The position numbers were made by a program, and so were the translations under genes. A DNA stretch of 64,000 nt from Minisyncoccota bacterium (GTDB lineage: Bacteria > Patescibacteriota > Minisyncoccia > Phycocordibacterales > BOKC01): NCBI GenBank assembly GCA_030583745.1, contig CP129473.1, positions 552,211 to 616,210 of the forward strand, written 5' to 3'. The notes beneath the pieces were generated by a model that was given only the letters and a program-made list of their open reading frames with translations, did not search any database and was not told the DNA's origin. This document shows, piece after piece, positions 13,983-64,000 of the stretch (the first letter of the stretch is position 1; each line of letters starts with the position of its first letter).

Positions 13983-14055
13983 GGTGCGGGATGGGAGAAT
14001 CGAACTCCCGACCGCGGTTTGGAAAACCGCTATTATACCATTTAACTAATCCCGC
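13981..14055 (-). tRNA. tRNA-Gly (anticodon UCC)
   Basis: The minus-strand sequence GCGGGAT-TA-GTTAAATGGTATAAT-A-GCGGT-TTTCCAA-ACCGC-GGTC-GGGAG-TTCGATT-CTCCC-ATCCCGC-A-CC folds as a cloverleaf. The 7-nt anticodon loop TTTCCAA gives UCC. The terminal A of CCA is not encoded. Confidence 0.85.
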
Positions 14056-14082
14056 CCTTTTTCTAAACTCTAAAATACTAGC

Positions 14083-14123
14083 AAAAAACAAAAACCTCGA
14101 CAAATTTGTCGAGGTTTTTGTTT
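14083..14123. terminator. bidirectional intrinsic terminator (perfect 20-nt palindrome CCTCGACAAATTTGTCGAGG flanked by an A-tract and a T-tract)
   Basis: A-run, then the palindrome, then TTTTTG; it can terminate transcripts from either strand. Confidence 0.65.
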
Positions 14124-14387
14124 CTGAAAAGTCAGTGAAAGTTACATAGAACCTTCTCCACCTCCTTCTGTTCCTTCAGTTTCAGGAGCCGGGGTAGTTT
14201 CTTCTCCGTTGTCTACTGGTGTTTGATTGTCGTCCATTGTTTTTTATATTAACCCTGCAAAACCTGCCATCAAAAATTTATTTTAGCGGCAGACAAATCA
14301 GGATGTATTGATAATTATTAAATCCGGCTTTTAGCCAGATTCTTCCCTATTATACACTATATCTAGAAAAGTCAAAATATTTATCCC

Positions 14388-14714
14388 TCAATTATCAACA
14401 TCTAAAGCTTTCTGGAAGTCGTCATTTACATCCAACTTATTTGTTTTTTCTAAACCGCATGAGAGGCATTTGTGCAACAATAGATTTTTCTGGCTTCTCT
14501 TGAAAAAAGAAATCGGCTTCATGAGTCCACCGCAGTCCGAGCCCCTGTCCCCCGGGTTTATATCTACATGCCGGCTCCAAAGGCAAACGGGGCAATGATT
14601 GGTGTAGCCGTTTCCTTTCACAAACTGTCTGCAATTCAAACACTCAAAGTCCTCTATTTTTCTTTGAAATCTTTTCATTAAAACATTCATTGTTCTTGAG
14701 AAATATGCTAGCAT
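14388..14714 (-). CDS. RNHCP-domain protein
   Basis: GYTNHCPVCLWSRH matches the RNHCP signature; Cys-rich (CLNC..., CLSCGLEK). Confidence 0.65.
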   Translation of the reverse strand: MLAYFSRTMNVLMKRFQRKIEDFECLNCRQFVKGNGYTNHCPVCLWSRHVDINPGDRGSDCGGLMKPISFFKRSQKNLLLHKCLSCGLEKTNKLDVNDDFQKALDVDN

Positions 14715-14735
14715 AGCGATGTTGAAGAAAAAAGA

Positions 14736-14806
14736 CGGAGCGTAGTATAACGGTAGTATACATGGTTTGGGACCATGCGGTCCGAGTTCGATTCTCGGCG
14801 CTCCGA
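14736..14806 (+). tRNA. tRNA-Pro (anticodon UGG)
   Basis: Acceptor stem CGGAGCG/CGCTCCG; anticodon stem CATGG/CCATG with loop TTTGGGA gives UGG; T-arm CCGAG-TTCGATT-CTCGG; no encoded CCA. Confidence 0.85.
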
Positions 14807-14944
14807 ACGAAACGAAGTGGGGTGAGGGGTGAGCAAGCCAACTTCTTGGCCTGTGTTCGGAATAGAACGATGGAGCATGTTATGAGGGTGGGAAACACTC
14901 TCGGTGTCTCGATCAAATAAAGATTTGGTTTCTATCTAATTTTT

Positions 14945-15358
14945 CTATTCCGGCAGAATGTCCTCAATCATCCGGACTTTTGCTGTTTTTCGGTCCGGGC
15001 TTAATAGAATTGCAATTACCGCGAATTTCCAATCAGAATTTTCCATTTTATTTTGTAATAAATACGTTTGGACAGCCATGCCGATTCTCTTTATCTTATG
15101 CTTCTCGACTCTTTCTTCCGGCCGATTCAATTCCCTATCTTCTTTCTCAAGACTAGTTTTGACTTCAATGAAATAATAAAAAATGTCTTTTTTAGAGACA
15201 ATGTCTATTTCCCCAAATTTTCGTCTAAAATTACGATTAAGTATTTTATAACCCTTATTTTTGAGGAATTTGCAGGCAATTTCCTCACCTAACTCCCCTG
15301 TTTCTAAATGTTCCGGCAATTTTTTATTGTCTTTTTGACTTTTAAATGAAAATACCAT
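14945..15358 (-). CDS. yraN: UPF0102/YraN-family endonuclease-like protein
   Basis: GEIDIV...FIEVK pattern and overall 137-aa architecture typical of YraN. Confidence 0.7.
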   Translation of the reverse strand: MVFSFKSQKDNKKLPEHLETGELGEEIACKFLKNKGYKILNRNFRRKFGEIDIVSKKDIFYYFIEVKTSLEKEDRELNRPEERVEKHKIKRIGMAVQTYLLQNKMENSDWKFAVIAILLSPDRKTAKVRMIEDILPE

Positions 15359-15556
15359 TTTTACGGCTTAAACAAAGGATTTTTGGGTGAAAAATAATAA
15401 TTTTTTGTCCAATAAAATTTTGTCCTTTATGCACATTTCCCCAGAGTTATCCACAGATATTGTCGTTAAGAAGTTATATTTTGATGCTAGTGTGTCCGCA
15501 CGATAATTTTGTGATAGCGCACGGCACAGGGTAAAAACCAATGGTAAAAATTTAGT

Positions 15557-15628
15557 GTGCGGGTAGGGAGAATCGAACTCCCGTCTGATCCTTGGCAAGG
15601 ACCTGTCATACCACTAAACTATACCCGC
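15557..15628 (-). tRNA. tRNA-Gly (anticodon GCC)
   Basis: Minus-strand GCGGGTA...GGTCC-TTGCCAA-GGATC...GGGAG-TTCGATT-CTCCC-TACCCGC-A; the anticodon loop gives GCC. Confidence 0.85.
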
Positions 15629-15901
15629 AGTATCATTAAAACTTTTAACTTGTAAAAGTTAACGATAACCATAATAACAGAATAATAAATTCATTGTCCA
15701 GAGTAATTTGTTGTTAGTTTTGGTTATCGGTCATCATTTATTAGTTATTATAAACAATGTTTTTCTTTGTCGGAGTTCGGATTACTGAAATTCTAACGAA
15801 TTTCAGTCTTGGCGGCAAATTCTTTGTTCTTTTAAATTATTAAAAATGAAAAGACCACCGTTCGCTTTCGCTACTAGGCGGCCTGGCTGTGGAGGGATGT
15901 T

Positions 15902-16351
15902 CTACTCGTTCATTCCCACCATCTTCTTGAGCTCATGCAGTAAGCTCTTCTTCGGATTGGGATTGAGGTCGTTGCTGACGTCCCAACTTGCACCCGAGTG
16001 GATGATATGCAGGATGCGCTCACGCAACTTCATCACATCCTTCGCCGAAGTGCCCTGCACGGTTAAGATCAAGTTTCGAGAGCCGAACCGCAGAAGATGC
16101 TGATCGTTCTGTTCGTACTCCTTGAACCCATTGCGACACACTTGTCCATGTGCGTTGCCGAGGTAGAAGTAAGCTTCCAACGGCTCCTGGGGGCCGCGCC
16201 AACCCTCTCGCGGATCTGTGGAAGAGACATTAATCCCCATCCTCCAACTCACAGTCATCCCCTCCGGAACGACGAAGTCATCCGGCAGGGTGACGAACGA
16301 GAGTTTGCGGACGACTTCTCCTTCGCGATTCAAAAGAACTAGACTCGACAT
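15902..16351 (-). CDS. hypothetical 149-aa protein in a GC-rich (~55%) island; no recognisable family
   Basis: Uninterrupted 149-codon ORF; strong ribosome-binding site (AAAGGAG-7nt-ATG); sigma70-like promoter upstream; composition unlike the host. Confidence 0.6.
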   Translation of the reverse strand: MSSLVLLNREGEVVRKLSFVTLPDDFVVPEGMTVSWRMGINVSSTDPREGWRGPQEPLEAYFYLGNAHGQVCRNGFKEYEQNDQHLLRFGSRNLILTVQGTSAKDVMKLRERILHIIHSGASWDVSNDLNPNPKKSLLHELKKMVGMNE

Positions 16352-16440
16352 GGTACTACTCCTTTCTTCTTTGCGTCTTGAGTTGTCCCAAGATCGCTGA
16401 GTGAAGTGAACAAGCCATCATGGTGATTGCTCTAAATATT

Positions 16441-16468
16441 AGTATAGCAATTTATACTAGTTTGTCAA
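16441..16468 (-). promoter_or_regulatory. sigma70-like promoter TTGACA-N16-TATACT driving the GC-rich gene at 15902..16351
   Basis: Minus-strand reading: ccTTGACAaactagtataaattgcTATACTaat. Confidence 0.55.
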
Positions 16469-16547
16469 GGTTTCGTGAAGATAAAAAACAGCCATATTTC
16501 AGGTCATTTTTCACTCAAAAATCCAATGATTAACTTTTCCAACGCGG

Positions 16548-16619
16548 TGCCCCCGGCAGGAATTGAACCCACATCAACCGGTTCGAAGCCGGTTATTCTA
16601 TCCATTAAACTACGGGGGC
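16548..16619 (-). tRNA. tRNA-Arg (anticodon UCG)
   Basis: Minus-strand GCCCCCG-TA-GTTTAATGGATAGAAT-A-ACCGG-CTTCGAA-CCGGT...GGGTTCAATTCC...CGGGGGC-A-CC; the anticodon loop gives UCG. Confidence 0.8.
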
Positions 16620-19534: not shown

Positions 19535-19789
19535 ATGAAAAGGCAAAGGCAGAAGTCCGCGCCTTTGGCGGCGGCAGGAACGCTACTGTTCGTGGTCGCG
19601 TTCGGTTCCGGCTGCTCAAATGCCGGGGAAGGTGCCTTGTCTGGCGCCGCGCTCGGGGCTCTGGCTGGAATGGGACTTGGGTCCCTTACCGGTAGCATGG
19701 GGCAGGGCGCGGCCGCCGGTGCGATCATCGGTGGCGTCGGGGGAGCAGTCATCGGCGACCAGAACAGTCGCCAGGAAAGGTACCGTTGA
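19535..19789 (+). CDS. OsmB-like glycine-zipper lipoprotein, GC-rich
   Basis: Lipobox LLFVVAFGSG-C-SN; Gly-zipper GALAGMGLGSLTGSMGQGAAAGAIIGGVGGAVIG; ribosome-binding site AAGGAG-6nt-ATG; ~65% GC over the coding region. Confidence 0.7.
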   Translation: MKRQRQKSAPLAAAGTLLFVVAFGSGCSNAGEGALSGAALGALAGMGLGSLTGSMGQGAAAGAIIGGVGGAVIGDQNSRQERYR

Positions 19790-40951: not shown

Positions 40952-41731
40952 ATGAAAAAAATAATAATTGGTAATTGGAAGATGAATCCGGAAACGGCTG
41001 AAGAGGCCAAGCGGATTTTTTCCGGTATAAAAAAGCTGGCAAGAGATTTTAAAAAAACCGAAATTGTTATCTGCCCGCCGTTTGTTTTTCTTGTTTCACT
41101 TTCGACTTCCAACCTCCAGCTTTCAAACTTAAAGCTTGGCGCTCAAAATATTTTTGAAGAAGACCCGAAAAATGGCAGTCGGGCTTTTACCGGCGAAACG
41201 AGCGCCACAATGCTGAAAGGTTTAGCTGTTAAATATGTAATTTTAGGTCATTCTGAAAGGCGGGCGCGTGGCGAGACGGATGAGGTAGTTAATAAAAAAA
41301 TAAAAACTGCTCTTAAAGCCGGCCTTACGCCCGTGGTTTGCGTTGGAGAAAACGAGCGCGATAGTGATGGAAAATTTTTTGAGATTTTAAAAAATCAAAT
41401 TAAGAATACCTTTGCCGGACTAAAGAAAAATGATTTTTCAAGAATAATTTTGGCTTATGAGCCGGTCTGGGCGATTGGCAAGAGTGAAAGAGATAATCTC
41501 AAAGGTGCCGATTTACATGAAGCGGTAATTTTTATTAGAAAAGTTTTATCAGAAATTGTTGGTAAGCCGTCGGCTTTTAATGCCCGAATTATTTATGGCG
41601 GGTCGGTGTCTTCGGCTAACGTCGCGGATATCATTTCAAACGGTCGGGTTTCCGGAATTTTACCAGGCCGAGCCAGTTTGGATCCGAAAGAGATGAAAGA
41701 GATCTTAATAATCCTGGAAAAATTAAAGTGA
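40952..41731 (+). CDS. tpiA: triosephosphate isomerase
   Basis: MKKIIIGNWKMN..., ...ILGHSERR..., ...AYEPVWAIG...GGSV... Confidence 0.9.
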   Translation: MKKIIIGNWKMNPETAEEAKRIFSGIKKLARDFKKTEIVICPPFVFLVSLSTSNLQLSNLKLGAQNIFEEDPKNGSRAFTGETSATMLKGLAVKYVILGHSERRARGETDEVVNKKIKTALKAGLTPVVCVGENERDSDGKFFEILKNQIKNTFAGLKKNDFSRIILAYEPVWAIGKSERDNLKGADLHEAVIFIRKVLSEIVGKPSAFNARIIYGGSVSSANVADIISNGRVSGILPGRASLDPKEMKEILIILEKLK

Positions 41732-42855
41732 GAAGTTTAAAAGGAATTGGTGATTTGTTCGGTAAGAAGGTTTTACTGCGTATTGATCTGAACGTTCCGA
41801 TCAAAGACGGTAAAGCTCTGGAAAATTTCCGGATAAAAAAAGTCCTGCCAACTATAAATTTTTTAAAAGAGAGTGGGGCTAAGATAATCCTTCTTTCTCA
41901 TTTGGAAGACAAGAATAAAAATGTTTTGGGACTAGGGCCGGTTTATGAATATTTGAGAAAATATTTTCCGGAAATTATTTTTGCCTCGGATTTTAGCGAG
42001 CTTAAAATAGCTATTCAGAATGCCGGGGCCGGAGATTTAATTCTTTTAGAAAATTTAAGGAATTGGCCGGGTGAAAAAAGTTGCGATGAAAATTTTATTA
42101 ATGAACTGGCTTCATTCGGTGATATTTACATAAACGATGCTTTTTCGGTCTCTCACCGAGAGCACGCCTCAATTGTCGGTTTGCCGAAAAAACTTCCGAG
42201 TTTCACTGGATTTTTATTTGAGGAAGAATTGAAAAATTTATCGAAAGTTTTTTCGCCCGAACACCCCTTTCTTTTTATTCTCGGCGGCGCAAAAACCGAA
42301 ACCAAACTTCCACTCTTTGCAAAATTTATTAAAACTGCCGATTATATTTTTATCGGCGGTGTTTTAGCCAACGATTTTTTAAAAGCCCGAGGATTTGAAG
42401 TTGGAAAATCCCTTGTTTCAAAAGGCATAGAAGAAGAAATCATTCGGCTTTCACAAAACTCAAAAGTTATTCTTTCTCAAAATGTCATTGTCGGAAACAA
42501 AGATATCTCGATTAAAAAATCTATTGGCAATGTTTCAGAAGAAGATGCGATAAAAGACGTGGTGGTTAGTGACTTAGAAGTTCTTGAGCGAGTCATTCAA
42601 AAATCAAAATTTATTCTTTGGAACGGCCCAATGGGGAATTTAGAAGAAAGTTTTTTGGAAGGTACGCAGAAATTAGCCAAGTTGATTTCTCAAAGTCCGG
42701 CCAAATCAATTATGGGCGGTGGAGATACAATTTCAGCTTTAGATGACTCCGTTTTGGAAAAATTCAGTTTTGTCTCAACCGCCGGCGGCGCGATGTTGGA
42801 TTTTCTGGCCAACGAGACTTTGCCGGGGATAGAAGCGCTTGAGCTAGGAAATTAG
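41728..42855 (+). CDS. pgk: phosphoglycerate kinase
   Basis: N-terminal LLRIDLNVP, and C-terminal ...MGGGDT...STAGGAMLDFL. Confidence 0.9.
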   Translation: MRSLKGIGDLFGKKVLLRIDLNVPIKDGKALENFRIKKVLPTINFLKESGAKIILLSHLEDKNKNVLGLGPVYEYLRKYFPEIIFASDFSELKIAIQNAGAGDLILLENLRNWPGEKSCDENFINELASFGDIYINDAFSVSHREHASIVGLPKKLPSFTGFLFEEELKNLSKVFSPEHPFLFILGGAKTETKLPLFAKFIKTADYIFIGGVLANDFLKARGFEVGKSLVSKGIEEEIIRLSQNSKVILSQNVIVGNKDISIKKSIGNVSEEDAIKDVVVSDLEVLERVIQKSKFILWNGPMGNLEESFLEGTQKLAKLISQSPAKSIMGGGDTISALDDSVLEKFSFVSTAGGAMLDFLANETLPGIEALELGN

Positions 42856-42880
42856 GCGCTAGGCGTTAGGAATTTAGTAA

Positions 42881-43121
42881 GAAAAAAGCCCGGCGTCCTT
42901 GCGTCCGCCGGGCTTCTGGGGTCTCGCGTAACGCTAGTGCGCGCTGACGCAACCCCATCGCCCAACCTCACTTTCCTGCAAAGTGGGGTGGGCGTGTTGA
43001 GTCGCAACCTCCAGGTCGTGCCCGTTTGACCCGAAGTGAAGAGCTCCGCTGAACTAGGGGCCGTATTGCAGGCAGGCCAATTTCAATGCGTGCTCGTTGC
43101 GACCAACTTAACTTGTTTCTA
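42881..43121 (-). ncRNA. candidate structured non-coding RNA of unknown family (~240 nt, GC-rich) with its own promoter and terminator
   Basis: Minus-strand TTGACA-N17-TAATCT promoter at 43128..43156; long-range helices (GGUCGCAAC/GUUGCGACU); intrinsic terminator GCCCGGCG...CGCCGGGC plus U6 at 42881..42913; no ORF with a ribosome-binding site. Confidence 0.45.
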
Positions 43122-43127
43122 TTTAGG

Positions 43128-43156
43128 AGATTACCACCGTGCCTTTTTCTTGTCAA
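43128..43156 (-). promoter_or_regulatory. sigma70-like promoter TTGACA-N17-TAATCT
   Basis: Minus-strand reading: tctagaTTGACAagaaaaaggcacggtggTAATCTcc. Confidence 0.5.
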
Positions 43157-43197
43157 TCTAGACCTTGCCGGGGATTGAATACTCGCGTTAGATTTTA

Positions 43198-43374
43198 CTT
43201 TTAAAATAGAAAACCCGTCGCGAGGGCATAACTCGCGACGGGTTGTGGAGAAAATGATTAAAGACAGAGGATTCTCCTGTACGGAAGGTGAATGACTTCT
43301 TCCGCACATCCTCTACCTCTTCGTTCGGGGTCACGGCGCAGGGCACAGCCCCAAATCGCTACCCGAACGCTCTG
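43198..43374 (-). ncRNA. candidate structured small RNA of unknown family (~175 nt) with a consensus promoter and an intrinsic terminator
   Basis: Minus-strand TTGACA-N16-TAGAAT promoter at 43381..43408. Nested helices: GACAGAG/CUCUGUC, CGUUCGGG/CCCGAACG, and a 9-bp GUGCGGAAG/CUUCCGUAC helix. Terminator: an 11-bp stem (CCCGTCGCGAG/CTCGCGACGGG) followed by a U-tract. Confidence 0.5.
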
Positions 43375-43380
43375 TCGAAG

Positions 43381-43408
43381 ATTCTATACCTTTTTTTATT
43401 TTTGTCAA
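43381..43408 (-). promoter_or_regulatory. sigma70-like promoter TTGACA-N16-TAGAAT
   Basis: Minus-strand reading: aaatacTTGACAaaaataaaaaaaggtaTAGAATctt. Confidence 0.55.
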
Positions 43409-43574
43409 GTATTTTCAGCTATCTTTCTTCTCTAAGTAGTTAAAACACGCCTTAAAATAAAGCTTTTACAAGGACTACCCTTGGTACAAGGACTACCCTT
43501 GGATTGGGGGGATTGATTGTCTGACTAAGAATTTTCTAGTATTTCCCTAAACCCTAAACCCTAGTCTCTAGACT

Positions 43575-43940
43575 CTATTCAAGGTTTTCTTTTATCTTTT
43601 CAGCGTTCTCTGGTAGGTCGCTTTTGTGTCCCTCGGCATCTCCGGCTGGGAAGACCCAAATGTGGGCGTGGGGCTGTTCGTCGCCGATAATTCGGCATAA
43701 AATCCACTCTGTTTTAAAGGCCTTTCTCTGGGCTAGGGCGATTTTCCGGGTAATTTCAAAATATTCACCAATATTAGGCACATCCCAAACCCAACGGTAA
43801 TGCTCTTTGGGAACAACTTGAACGTGTCCCGGTGTCTGTGGATTGATGTCTAAAAAAGCCATAAAGTTTTCGTCTTCGTAAACTATGTGAGCCGACACTT
43901 CCTTTCTGGCAATTTTGCAAAAAATGCAATCTTTTTCCAT
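43575..43940 (-). CDS. HIT-family (histidine triad) hydrolase
   Basis: CIFCKI N-terminus, and an HxHxH triad region (...QPHAHIWVFP...). Confidence 0.8.
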   Translation of the reverse strand: MEKDCIFCKIARKEVSAHIVYEDENFMAFLDINPQTPGHVQVVPKEHYRWVWDVPNIGEYFEITRKIALAQRKAFKTEWILCRIIGDEQPHAHIWVFPAGDAEGHKSDLPENAEKIKENLE

Positions 43941-45682: not shown

Positions 45683-46431
45683 TGAATCAGAAATCACAAA
45701 TTATAATTTTTACAGACGGCGCGTCACGGGGTAATCCGGGCCCGGGGGGCTGGGGTGCCATCATCGCTGAAAGCGGCGATGTACGGATTAACGCGGATGA
45801 AAATGCACGCGGATTAACGCGGATTGTCGAACTCGGCGGGCGAGAAGAACATACCACCAACAACCGCATGGAATTAACTGCCGCAATAAAGGCTTTAGAA
45901 TTTTCTCATACCCTAAACTCTGGTGGCTATACACTAATTTACACCGATTCAAAATACTTAATAGACGGAATAACTAAATGGATTTTTTCTTGGGAGAAAA
46001 GAAATTGGGTTACCAAAAACAAAGAGCCAGTTTTGAACAAAGATTTATGGGAAAAACTTTTAGAGCTGACAAAGTTTAGAGAGATAGAATGGAAATATGT
46101 TGGTGGACATTCCGGAATTGCCGGCAATGAGAGAGTAGACCAAATTGCCACTGAATTTGCCGACGGAAAAGCCACAAATCTTTTTTCAAGTGATATTTCA
46201 AAATATAAAATTGATATTTTAAATTTGAACGGGGAAGAAAAGAAAAAAAGTTCTAAAAATCGCTCTCGCAGTAAAGCTTATTCGTATTTAAGTATGGTAG
46301 AAGGTGTGGTCGAGAAGCATAAAACTTGGGCAGAGTGTGAGAGGAGGGTAAAAGGCAAAAGTGGCGCCAGATTCAAAAAAGCATTAAGTGCGGAAGAAGA
46401 AAAAGAAATTATAAAAAACTGGTCTCTCTGA
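45682..46431 (+). CDS. rnhA: ribonuclease HI with a C-terminal extension
   Basis: IIFTDGASRGNPGPGGWG..., ...NNRMELTAAIKAL..., YTDSKY..., ...HSGIAGNERVDQIA. It contains a short internal direct repeat (acgcggattaacgcggat x2). Confidence 0.8.
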   Translation: MNQKSQIIIFTDGASRGNPGPGGWGAIIAESGDVRINADENARGLTRIVELGGREEHTTNNRMELTAAIKALEFSHTLNSGGYTLIYTDSKYLIDGITKWIFSWEKRNWVTKNKEPVLNKDLWEKLLELTKFREIEWKYVGGHSGIAGNERVDQIATEFADGKATNLFSSDISKYKIDILNLNGEEKKKSSKNRSRSKAYSYLSMVEGVVEKHKTWAECERRVKGKSGARFKKALSAEEEKEIIKNWSL

Positions 46432-63489: not shown

Positions 63490-63650
63490 GTGCTTACGCC
63501 TTTATTTTTCTTGACATTGCAATTAAATTGTACTATCCTTAAAAAGGATACGGAAAAACATGTGGTTTTCCGACAAAGTTTGTCATCCGGTTTGCCTAGC
63601 TCCATGTAGGAGTTAGCGCTGAAATAGTCAAGAGACAAAAGGAGATAAAG

Positions 63651-64000
63651 ATGAAGAATCTGTGGATTTGTACGACCAGGATCTTTCTGTTTCAGATCTT
63701 GGTTGGTGGAGTGACGTTCGGTATGACCGGCGATGTTGCACTTGCGGCTACCGCGGTCATCATCATGACCGCCGCCGCGGTCATTGTCACCGCCCTCTCT
63801 GCAATCTCCACAACCGCCACCTACGCTGATCTTTTAACCACTCTTGCCGCTCTCATCGCCGCCTTCGCTGCCCATGCCGCTCTCATCGCCGCTTTCGCCT
63901 TCATCGAACTCGCCGCCTTCGTCATCGCCGCCCTCGTCTTCGTCATCGCCAAAAACGCGAGGGAAAACGGAGCCAAGGAGCCGTTCTGGGCTCTGTGGCT
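63651..64000 (+). CDS. GC-rich hydrophobic (multi-TM, Ala/Ile/Thr-rich) membrane protein, 5' part only; runs off the window end
   Basis: Manual translation from ATG 63651 gives MKNLWICTTRIFLFQILVGGVTFGMTGDVALAATAVIIMTAAAVIVTALSAISTTATYADLLTTLAALIAAFAAHAALIAAFAFIELAAFVIAALVFVIAKNARENG...; ribosome-binding site AAAGGAG-7nt-ATG. Absent from the ORF track because it is incomplete. Confidence 0.55.
   Translation, partial: MKNLWICTTRIFLFQILVGGVTFGMTGDVALAATAVIIMTAAAVIVTALSAISTTATYADLLTTLAALIAAFAAHAALIAAFAFIELAAFVIAALVFVIAKNARENGAKEPFWALW

Follow-up and report, generated by a model that had tools for sequence, protein, structure and literature searches.

Two candidate small RNA genes at a strain-variable site between pgk and a HIT-family gene in a Candidatus Paceibacterota species

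What occupies the spacer between the convergent genes pgk and HIT (a HIT-family gene) in the 0.69-Mb genome of a Candidatus Paceibacterota species of the Candidate Phyla Radiation (CPR, or Patescibacteria)? The spacer is 719 bp long and lies in the 64,000 nucleotides of DNA analysed here, called the window, whose positions are used throughout unless another locus is named. An original prediction, made from the letters alone, placed two dedicated small RNA (sRNA) genes in it and left open whether they were a new RNA family or a highly divergent known one. The reading we favour, with a probability of roughly 55%, is that the spacer carries two unrelated and independently transcribed non-coding sRNA genes, which make up the variable content of a cassette site between HIT and pgk. 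The observations behind it are the promoter and terminator signals, the lack of coding potential, the lack of any match to Rfam, the conserved structure of unit 1 and the replacement of whole cassettes between strains.

Read directly in the sequence, the segment 42868-43408 consists, as predicted, of two tandem, back-to-back units on the minus strand, in both of which a GC-rich structured core is set between a promoter and an intrinsic terminator. The pattern TTGACA-N16-18-TAnnnT was observed six times in the 64 kb against 1.74 expected, and two of these six occurrences are the promoters of unit 1 and unit 2. The GC content reaches 0.56-0.63 at the cassettes (about 55% in the earlier description), against 0.408 across the window, for which a background of about 38% had been given. 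The minus-strand fold of unit 1 reaches -75.5 kcal/mol and that of unit 2 -120.4 kcal/mol, with z-scores of -5.4 and -7.0 against dinucleotide shuffles, whereas the plus strands fold less well (z of -4.4 and -3.2, respectively), which fits G-U pairs on the minus strand. By sequence each unit has the promoter, the Rho-independent terminator and the absence of coding potential expected of a stand-alone sRNA gene.

Further we compared the site between strains, and three alleles could be told apart. Allele A is that of the window, with unit 1, a decayed copy of the pgk 3' end and unit 2. It is shared with loci L001-L004 and L018, where Pgk is 86-100% and the flanks 95-99% identical; all five are strains of this one species, for which reason the well-conserved spacer of L001-L004 was discarded as a sign of selection. 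Allele B was found at locus L010, and its HIT protein led to ten contigs (L019-L028) with the same allele, among which the L010 contig recurs. The flanks of this allele are about 95% identical to the window, with a divergent stretch at 42741-43624 that begins in the 3' end of pgk and reaches that of HIT. The allele B spacer is 308 bp and holds only a homologue of unit 1, about 75% identical, with neither unit 2 nor the pgk remnant. The unit 1 promoter stands in the same position as a perfect TTGACA-N16-TATAAT (12/12; L010 2728-2701), and the unit ends 18 nt from the pgk stop.

Allele C (L031; HIT 98% identical) follows the window at 96.4% identity as far as 42867 and at 96.6% from 43407 onwards; the sequence between these points cannot be aligned, as an unrelated cassette of 264 bp there replaces 42868-43406. 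The segment so delimited nearly coincides with the one outlined in the original prediction. The allele C cassette (L031 1861-2116) has a TG-extended promoter matching 12/12, encodes a putative RNA of about 200 nt with a fold z-score of only -2.5, and ends in the terminator GAGGGCTGG...CCAGCCCTC followed by T6. Its RNA has no match in Rfam and no significant similarity to unit 2, and neither unit 2 nor the allele C RNA could be taken for a diverged homologue of unit 1, since their local alignment scores were no better than those of shuffles. The flank after the unit 2 terminator is common to allele C; the two RNAs therefore hold the same position relative to that pgk end. In L032 (3014-3050) and L033 (2489-2517) the spacer follows allele C up to '...cacttaaattagc' and then continues with CGCTTTCTAATCAATAGCTTGTATTCACT until the contig ends, diverging exactly where the -35 box of allele C would begin. 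Either a fourth allele or a break of the assembly at this variable site would account for it; neither the window nor the viral contigs contain the 29-mer concerned.

Among more distant relatives, only 10-200 nt separate pgk from HIT in L005 (about 70% nucleotide identity), L008 and L009, where nothing resembling the cassettes was seen, and the further HIT relatives L029 and L030 have no cassette either, so that five distant relatives in all lack one; in these pgk and HIT are adjacent, or HIT is followed by other sequence. The lineage is sparsely sampled: in the range of 60% to 85% identity there is a single Pgk homologue (P0008, 71%). The comparison shows the cassettes, as far as sequence can tell, to be accessory and dispensable at the strain level.

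The homologue with compensatory changes that the original prediction had proposed to look for was found, for unit 1, in allele B. RNAalifold on three distinct unit 1 sequences gives two domains, of which domain II takes the form AGAGGYARAGG/CCYUYUGUCUU around a second hairpin. We aligned alleles A and B segment by segment on structure, terminator included, over 53 pairs: 35 are unchanged, 6 are changed on one side and still paired, 6 are changed on both sides and still paired (3 in the core and 3 in the terminator), 1 is broken and 5 exist only in allele B. Hence 12 of the 13 changed pairs remain paired between the two alleles, with the alignment of the inner hairpin made by hand. Domain I is the best conserved block of the unit (CAGAGCGUUCGGnUAGCGAUUUGGGGCUGUGCC has 1 mismatch in 33 nt between the alleles), and three one-sided changes in its apical stem all preserve pairing. 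In domain II three pairs are changed on both sides and three on one side, all still paired, and its inner hairpin is longer by 4 bp in allele B. The terminator of allele B has a 15-bp stem of different sequence, with the three compensated pairs. As these pairs are kept and the consensus promoter is retained in allele B, the two-allele comparison supports unit 1 as a likely real structured RNA gene.

The earlier description of unit 1 holds in most parts. Its promoter TTGACA-N16-TAGAAT was found where predicted, and the terminator is present with its U-tract, its stem being 13 bp and not 11. All three helices that had been named are present; of these GACAGAG/CUCUGUC is not the best-supported pairing, since CCUCUGUCUU pairs better with AGAGGUAGAGG, and CCUCUGUCUU/AGAGGUAGAGG is the helix that covaries. 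In allele B the GACAGAG/CUCUGUC helix contains a U-U mismatch and a wobble. Competing with the covarying helix and mismatched in allele B, it seems at best to be an alternative conformer.

Some unpaired elements of unit 1 are conserved as well: a 5' CAGAG, AGGAGAA in the internal loop of domain II, whose 3' side holds the conserved unpaired AGGAGAAU, and the pre-terminator tail AUCAUUU(C)UCUCCACAA. GGAGAA in the loop and UUCUCC in the tail are mutually complementary, and an internal switch by way of this complementarity is possible. The tail is also complementary to ribosome-binding sites of the GGAGA type. As a separate observation, the terminator loop in L004 (2860-2892, corresponding to window 43212-43244) is exactly inverted, from TTATGCC to GGCATAA, with the stem unchanged.

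Unit 2 has another history. It lies between the two copies of an imperfect 34-nt direct repeat from the pgk 3' end (42801-42834 and 43146-43179), and the copy far from pgk continues in frame as a remnant ending LPGIEYSR*, which resembles the C-terminus LPGIEYLR* of allele B Pgk (P0007). The remnant is followed by the unit 1 terminator, as the pgk end is in allele B, and the identity of pgk to allele B falls to 68% at 42741-42840. As the remnant matches the allele B Pgk end and precedes the unit 1 terminator, the ancestral order was pgk, unit 1, HIT. At the level of sequence comparison we take it as shown that unit 2 was inserted later, on a fragment that also brought another 3' end for pgk and replaced the existing one. 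One crossover inside pgk (about 42740-42840) and one illegitimate join near 43145 would be consistent with this. The old end was left behind as a 46-nt remnant which now supplies the -35 box of unit 2: the box lies inside the remnant and reads TTGACA there, against TTGGCC in pgk.

The promoter, GC-rich helical region and terminator predicted for unit 2 are all present, the terminator ending near 42882. The promoter is missing from the list of the promoter scanner because its -10 matches only 3/6, and the terminator is unlisted by the terminator scanner because its loop is too long. Variants of unit 2 come from the same species only. Two of them turn G-C into G-U in well-defined helices, namely a C to U change in helix C and the one strain change in hairpin D, both with pairing kept, and several others fall in loops. 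With only same-species variants at hand, the case for unit 2 is made by its promoter, its terminator, its strand-specific stability and the absence of an ORF. The features of both units and their neighbours are collected in Table 1.

Table 1. Positions of the two units, their parts and the adjoining genes in the window.
Feature	Position	Strand	Remarks
Unit 1 promoter	43381-43408	-	TTGACA (43408-43403)-N16-TAGAAT (43386-43381); 11/12 consensus matches
Unit 1 core	43260-43376	-	GC-rich
Unit 1 domain I	43322-43369	-	hairpin CGUUCGG/CCGAACG with inner GCG/CGC and apical stem-loop UGGGGC-UGU-GCCCUG
Unit 1 domain II	43260-43320	-	long hairpin AGAGGUAGAGG/CCUCUGUCUUU around hairpin GUGCGGAAG/CUUCCGUAC
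Unit 1 tail	43245-43259	-	single-stranded, pyrimidine-rich AAUCAUUUUCUCCAC; conserved in allele B; candidate pairing region
Unit 1 intrinsic terminator	43202-43244	-	13-bp stem (43244-43212), 7-nt loop, U-rich tail TTTTCTATTTT
Unit 2 promoter	43128-43156	-	TTGACA (43156-43151)-N17-TAATCT (43133-43128); TGG before the -10 (extended -10)
Unit 2 core	42917-43107	-	about 200 nt, GC-rich, multi-helix
Unit 2 5' domain	42996-43107	-	12-bp closing helix GUUGGUCGCAAC/GUUGCGAC-UCAAC round a three-way junction; z -3.6
Unit 2 hairpins D and E	42917-42994	-	D 42994-42959, E 42957-42917; z -4.4
Unit 2 intrinsic terminator	42882-42916	-	GCCCGGCG...CGCCGGGC then T6; 8-bp GC stem
Decayed copy of pgk 3' end	43146-43191	+	...LPGIEYSR*, stop 43189-43191; 43146-43179 is 76% identical to pgk 42801-42834
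Functional pgk 3' end	42801-42855	+	...LPGIEALELGN*; came with unit 2; 42801-42834 is the other repeat copy
tpiA	40952-41731	+	gene order at the locus
pgk	41728-42855	+	gene order at the locus
HIT-family gene	43575-43940	-	
recJ	from 43967	+	

On the favoured reading both units would be expressed as accessory sRNAs that regulate in trans. The unit 1 transcript would be about 170 nt, from a near-consensus sigma-70 promoter to the terminator, with a 5' hairpin domain, a long second hairpin and an unpaired pyrimidine-rich tail (UUUUCUCCAC). That of unit 2 would be about 240 nt, with the three-way-junction domain, two hairpins and the terminator. Action in trans is the most likely mode we infer for unit 1, through the conserved tail and/or AGGAGAA, which might pair with the ribosome-binding regions of mRNAs or titrate a protein, and the cassettes would be exchanged by homologous recombination of DNA taken up by the cell. 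They look like accessory, lineage-restricted and fast-turning-over sRNA genes in a recombination hot spot.

Several points weigh against this reading. Unit 2 has a weak -10, and a gene remnant provides its -35. Four strains differ at 13 of the 246 columns of unit 2 (about 10 differences, or 4%, against L001), the polymorphism is no lower than in the flanks, and a few changes break weak predicted pairs; moreover, no homologue of unit 2 was found outside the species. The comparative support for unit 1 consists of two alleles, and the inner hairpin was aligned with the structure in mind. The pairing of unit 1 with unit 2 gave a duplex energy no better than shuffles. Finally, that one cassette gives way to a non-homologous other could also be a sign that the exact sequence of the RNA is irrelevant.

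The main functional rival is that the cassettes act in cis, as a conditional terminator or processing element of the HIT transcript which gates antisense read-through into pgk and tpiA. In the three alleles the cassette points from HIT towards the pgk 3' end, and its terminator comes within about 20-60 nt of the stop codon of pgk; HIT has no convincing terminator ahead of the unit 1 promoter, and the U-tracts on the plus strand are poor, so that pgk and cassette transcripts could overlap. All this would suit such a role, yet each cassette has a consensus promoter of its own, unit 1 in allele A precedes unit 2 and not pgk, the terminators are strong (13-15 bp), and the lack of homology between cassettes speaks against a shared ligand-sensing aptamer. 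As for a riboswitch or leader, the next gene on the minus-strand path is the convergent, plus-strand pgk. Overall we consider control in cis unlikely.

The segment might also be without function, a scar of recombination or what is left of imported or mobile DNA, in which case the signals and folds would be by-products of GC-rich foreign sequence. This would account for the duplicated pgk 3' end around unit 2, for the presence of unit 2 in one allele only and for its undiminished polymorphism; pgk itself is mosaic between strains, and no homologues turned up in viral contigs, phages, plasmids, one metagenome scan and one genome scan. Against it stands that in three alleles the sigma-70 promoter is near-perfect, the terminator strong and the orientation the same, that the unit 1 helices are preserved in nearly all changed pairs and that the fold z-scores are strand-specific. 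Nor does the segment contain a recombinase gene or a bounding inverted repeat, the repeat search having given only the 34-nt direct repeat of pgk, the one feature in keeping with a mobile element, and neither a recombinase nor a transposase gene was found nearby, nor a second copy in the window or the fetched loci. For the segment as a whole we hold this improbable; for unit 2, a scar without function is a real possibility.

A bolder proposal, which we regard as doubtful, is a dedicated hypervariable RNA cassette site with a strain-specific function in conflict, immunity or host interaction, whose units would found new RNA classes. The cassettes would then be bounded by the promoter -35 on one side and the terminator end on the other, as an RNA-only system in an episymbiotic CPR bacterium. 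Slighter still is the chance that the RNAs are parts of a strain-variable conflict system, acting as decoys, antitoxin-like RNAs or guides for a protein encoded elsewhere. The non-homologous replacement at one site between flanks about 96% identical, the possible fourth variant and the strong promoters in all alleles would be in keeping with it; against it, the neighbourhood (tpiA, pgk, HIT, recJ, an RNase H gene, comEC and sod) offers no associated protein gene, and there are no repeats or arrays. The ORF lists were also searched for a type I toxin-antitoxin locus, and alleles A and B have no conserved small hydrophobic ORF in common.

Could the units be the RNase P, signal recognition particle (SRP), 6S or transfer-messenger (tmRNA) RNA of this genome, too divergent for the Rfam models in CPR? 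GC-rich islands with strong promoters are typical of such genes in small AT-rich genomes, and the window holds none of these RNAs. Rfam 15 (4227 covariance models), run on the whole window at gathering thresholds, returned only four tRNAs, and ARAGORN, which recognises a tmRNA by its tRNA-like domain and tag reading frame, likewise found the four tRNAs and no tmRNA in the window. A relaxed scan (E<=10) of 42700-43600, allele B and allele C gave only sub-threshold matches, mostly to terminator hairpins.

In bacterial RNase P RNA, an essential single-copy gene, the CR-I (GAGGAAAGUCC) and CR-V (ACAGAAnnCGGCUUA) strands form P4. The models RNaseP_bact_a and RNaseP_bact_b had no match at E<=10, and the CR-V-like CAGAAGCCCGGC was rejected as such a motif, since it varies among strains (AGAAG, AAGGG, AGGGG) and is part of a terminator. 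SRP RNA is marked by the hairpin of domain IV, which has a GNAR tetraloop as well as symmetric and asymmetric loops that are conserved (the GGAAGCAGC region). The SRP models had no match at E<=10, and the hairpin loops measure 11 nt in unit 1, against 5-10 nt in those of unit 2. The 6S RNA forms a rod of about 180 nt whose 5' and 3' ends are paired and which opens into a large bubble at its centre. No 6S match was obtained at E<=10, and both units are multi-domain with unpaired 5' ends and not a rod.

The original prediction had seen no convincing match to tmRNA, RNase P or SRP RNA by eye, which the Rfam scans, including the relaxed ones, and ARAGORN bear out. The highly divergent housekeeping RNA that it had kept in play, on the other hand, is excluded by the strain-level dispensability: unit 2 is absent from allele B, and both units are absent at the locus in allele C and the five distant relatives. 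We leave it a very slight residual chance. A broad new RNA family is likewise not supported, and for unit 2 a new family is unproven, as no homologue was found beyond the species.

Searches for further relatives of the units were likewise negative. Neither nhmmer nor a covariance model of unit 1, run against the window and all fetched loci, found other than the known copies; nhmmer in relatives gave nothing; blastn had no match in the phage and plasmid collections, and six pattern scans of viral contigs gave nothing. A scan of the genome collection with the most conserved 18-mer of unit 1 returned 7 chance matches in unrelated phyla and no CPR genome, and a metagenome scan with a 22-mer of unit 2 only one contig of the same species; such exact-pattern scans are insensitive and do not prove absence elsewhere. 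Our literature search found no regulatory RNAs described in CPR/Patescibacteria.

That the 113-aa minus-strand ORF (42968-43309), or any other small ORF in the segment, truly encodes a protein is exceedingly improbable, as was first predicted: although gene callers annotate an ORF here in L002 (124 aa), and in L010 and L023 (84 aa, other strand), the 113-aa frame runs through the unit 1 terminator into unit 2, and alleles A and B differ by indels of 1 nt and 8 nt, not multiples of three, which break any reading frame. Neither it nor the other small ORFs had a Pfam match or were present, on exact look-up, in the protein collection. Exhaustive HMMER searches with the 113-aa ORF brought only a spurious 124-aa ORF of the same species and low-complexity matches in several stretches, and the concatenated six-frame translation as protein query brought nothing. 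The only peptide stretch that the alleles share, VQENPLS, derives from a conserved nucleotide block, after which a frameshift follows.

Other observations were made along the way. Between HIT and the unit 1 promoter, window 43467-43502 is a perfect tandem duplication of 18 bp (TACAAGGACTACCCTTGG, two copies), single-copy in L001, L002, L004 and L031. The gene pgk is mosaic between strains, with a patch at 41940-42340 only 46-80% identical amid surroundings of 95-100%, and a patch of the same 46-80% identity lies at 45725-45930, at the end of recJ and the start of the RNase H gene; these patches indicate a probably frequent import of divergent DNA in the population. Locus L003 (5556-5918) has an extra 120-aa gene between tpiA and pgk, absent from the window, which matches PF05635 (23S_rRNA_IVP, a four-helix bundle).

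Elsewhere in the window the four tRNA genes (Gly-TCC, Pro-TGG, Gly-GCC, Arg-TCG) are clustered at 13983-16619 with short ORFs in between. Two other GC islands were rejected as RNA genes. The richest one of the window (0.61; 19535-19786, plus strand) is a glycine-zipper lipoprotein gene (PF13488, E 9e-9), after which a terminator-like hairpin is found, and the one near 63.7 kb belongs to a gene for an Ala-rich hydrophobic protein that runs off the window. At 63511-64000 (plus strand) a promoter TTGACA-N17-TATCCT is followed by a leader of about 110 nt and the start of this protein, which explains the GC-rich end; no rRNA and no Rfam match was found there.

If expressed, the units would be concrete candidate sRNA genes in a small CPR genome, from a group that is hard to grow. 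In addition, they would illustrate in nature how quickly sRNA genes can turn over at one site, and how a decayed gene end is recruited as a -35 box. The tempting reading of them as the 'missing' housekeeping RNAs of the genome is removed. What was unexpected is that, among strains with flanks about 96% identical, unrelated RNAs replace one another like cassettes at one fixed site. On present evidence they are candidate new sRNA genes of ordinary architecture and not a new kind of system.

How, then, do the cassettes compare with known systems? With the universal RNAs (RNase P, SRP, 6S and tmRNA) they share the GC-rich island, the strong promoter and the multi-helix fold, and they differ in having no model match or diagnostic motifs and in being dispensable between strains. 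Integrative elements that supply a replacement gene 3' end resemble unit 2 in its position between 34-nt repeats with a functional and a displaced pgk end; however, the insert is only about 345 bp, has no integrase gene, and the copies of its repeat share just 76% identity. The pattern would be explained equally well by two crossovers with DNA of a relative, one homologous and the other illegitimate. Antisense-controlling terminator or riboswitch elements are exemplified by AspocR in Listeria, which is controlled by a B12 riboswitch. The likeness here is a cassette aimed at the convergent 3' end of pgk-tpiA with a terminator next to the pgk stop, and the differences are the lack of a recognisable aptamer, the non-homologous cassettes, the constitutive-looking terminators and the position of unit 2 between unit 1 and pgk.

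Orphan, lineage-specific, trans-acting sRNAs have a sigma-70 promoter, a structured body, an unpaired seed and a Rho-independent terminator, as in the young or horizontally acquired sRNAs of enterobacteria and Firmicutes, among them RsaE/RoxS with their C-rich motif. The cassettes have no sequence or structure match in Rfam to the described sRNA families, and, unlike the orphan sRNAs, they are unrelated RNAs at the same site in different strains, in a CPR host. They are like such genes in their own promoter and terminator, in a length of 170-240 nt, in the absence of an ORF, in their place in a convergent spacer and in their narrow range, and a further likeness is the conserved unpaired pyrimidine-rich stretch that unit 1 carries just before its terminator.

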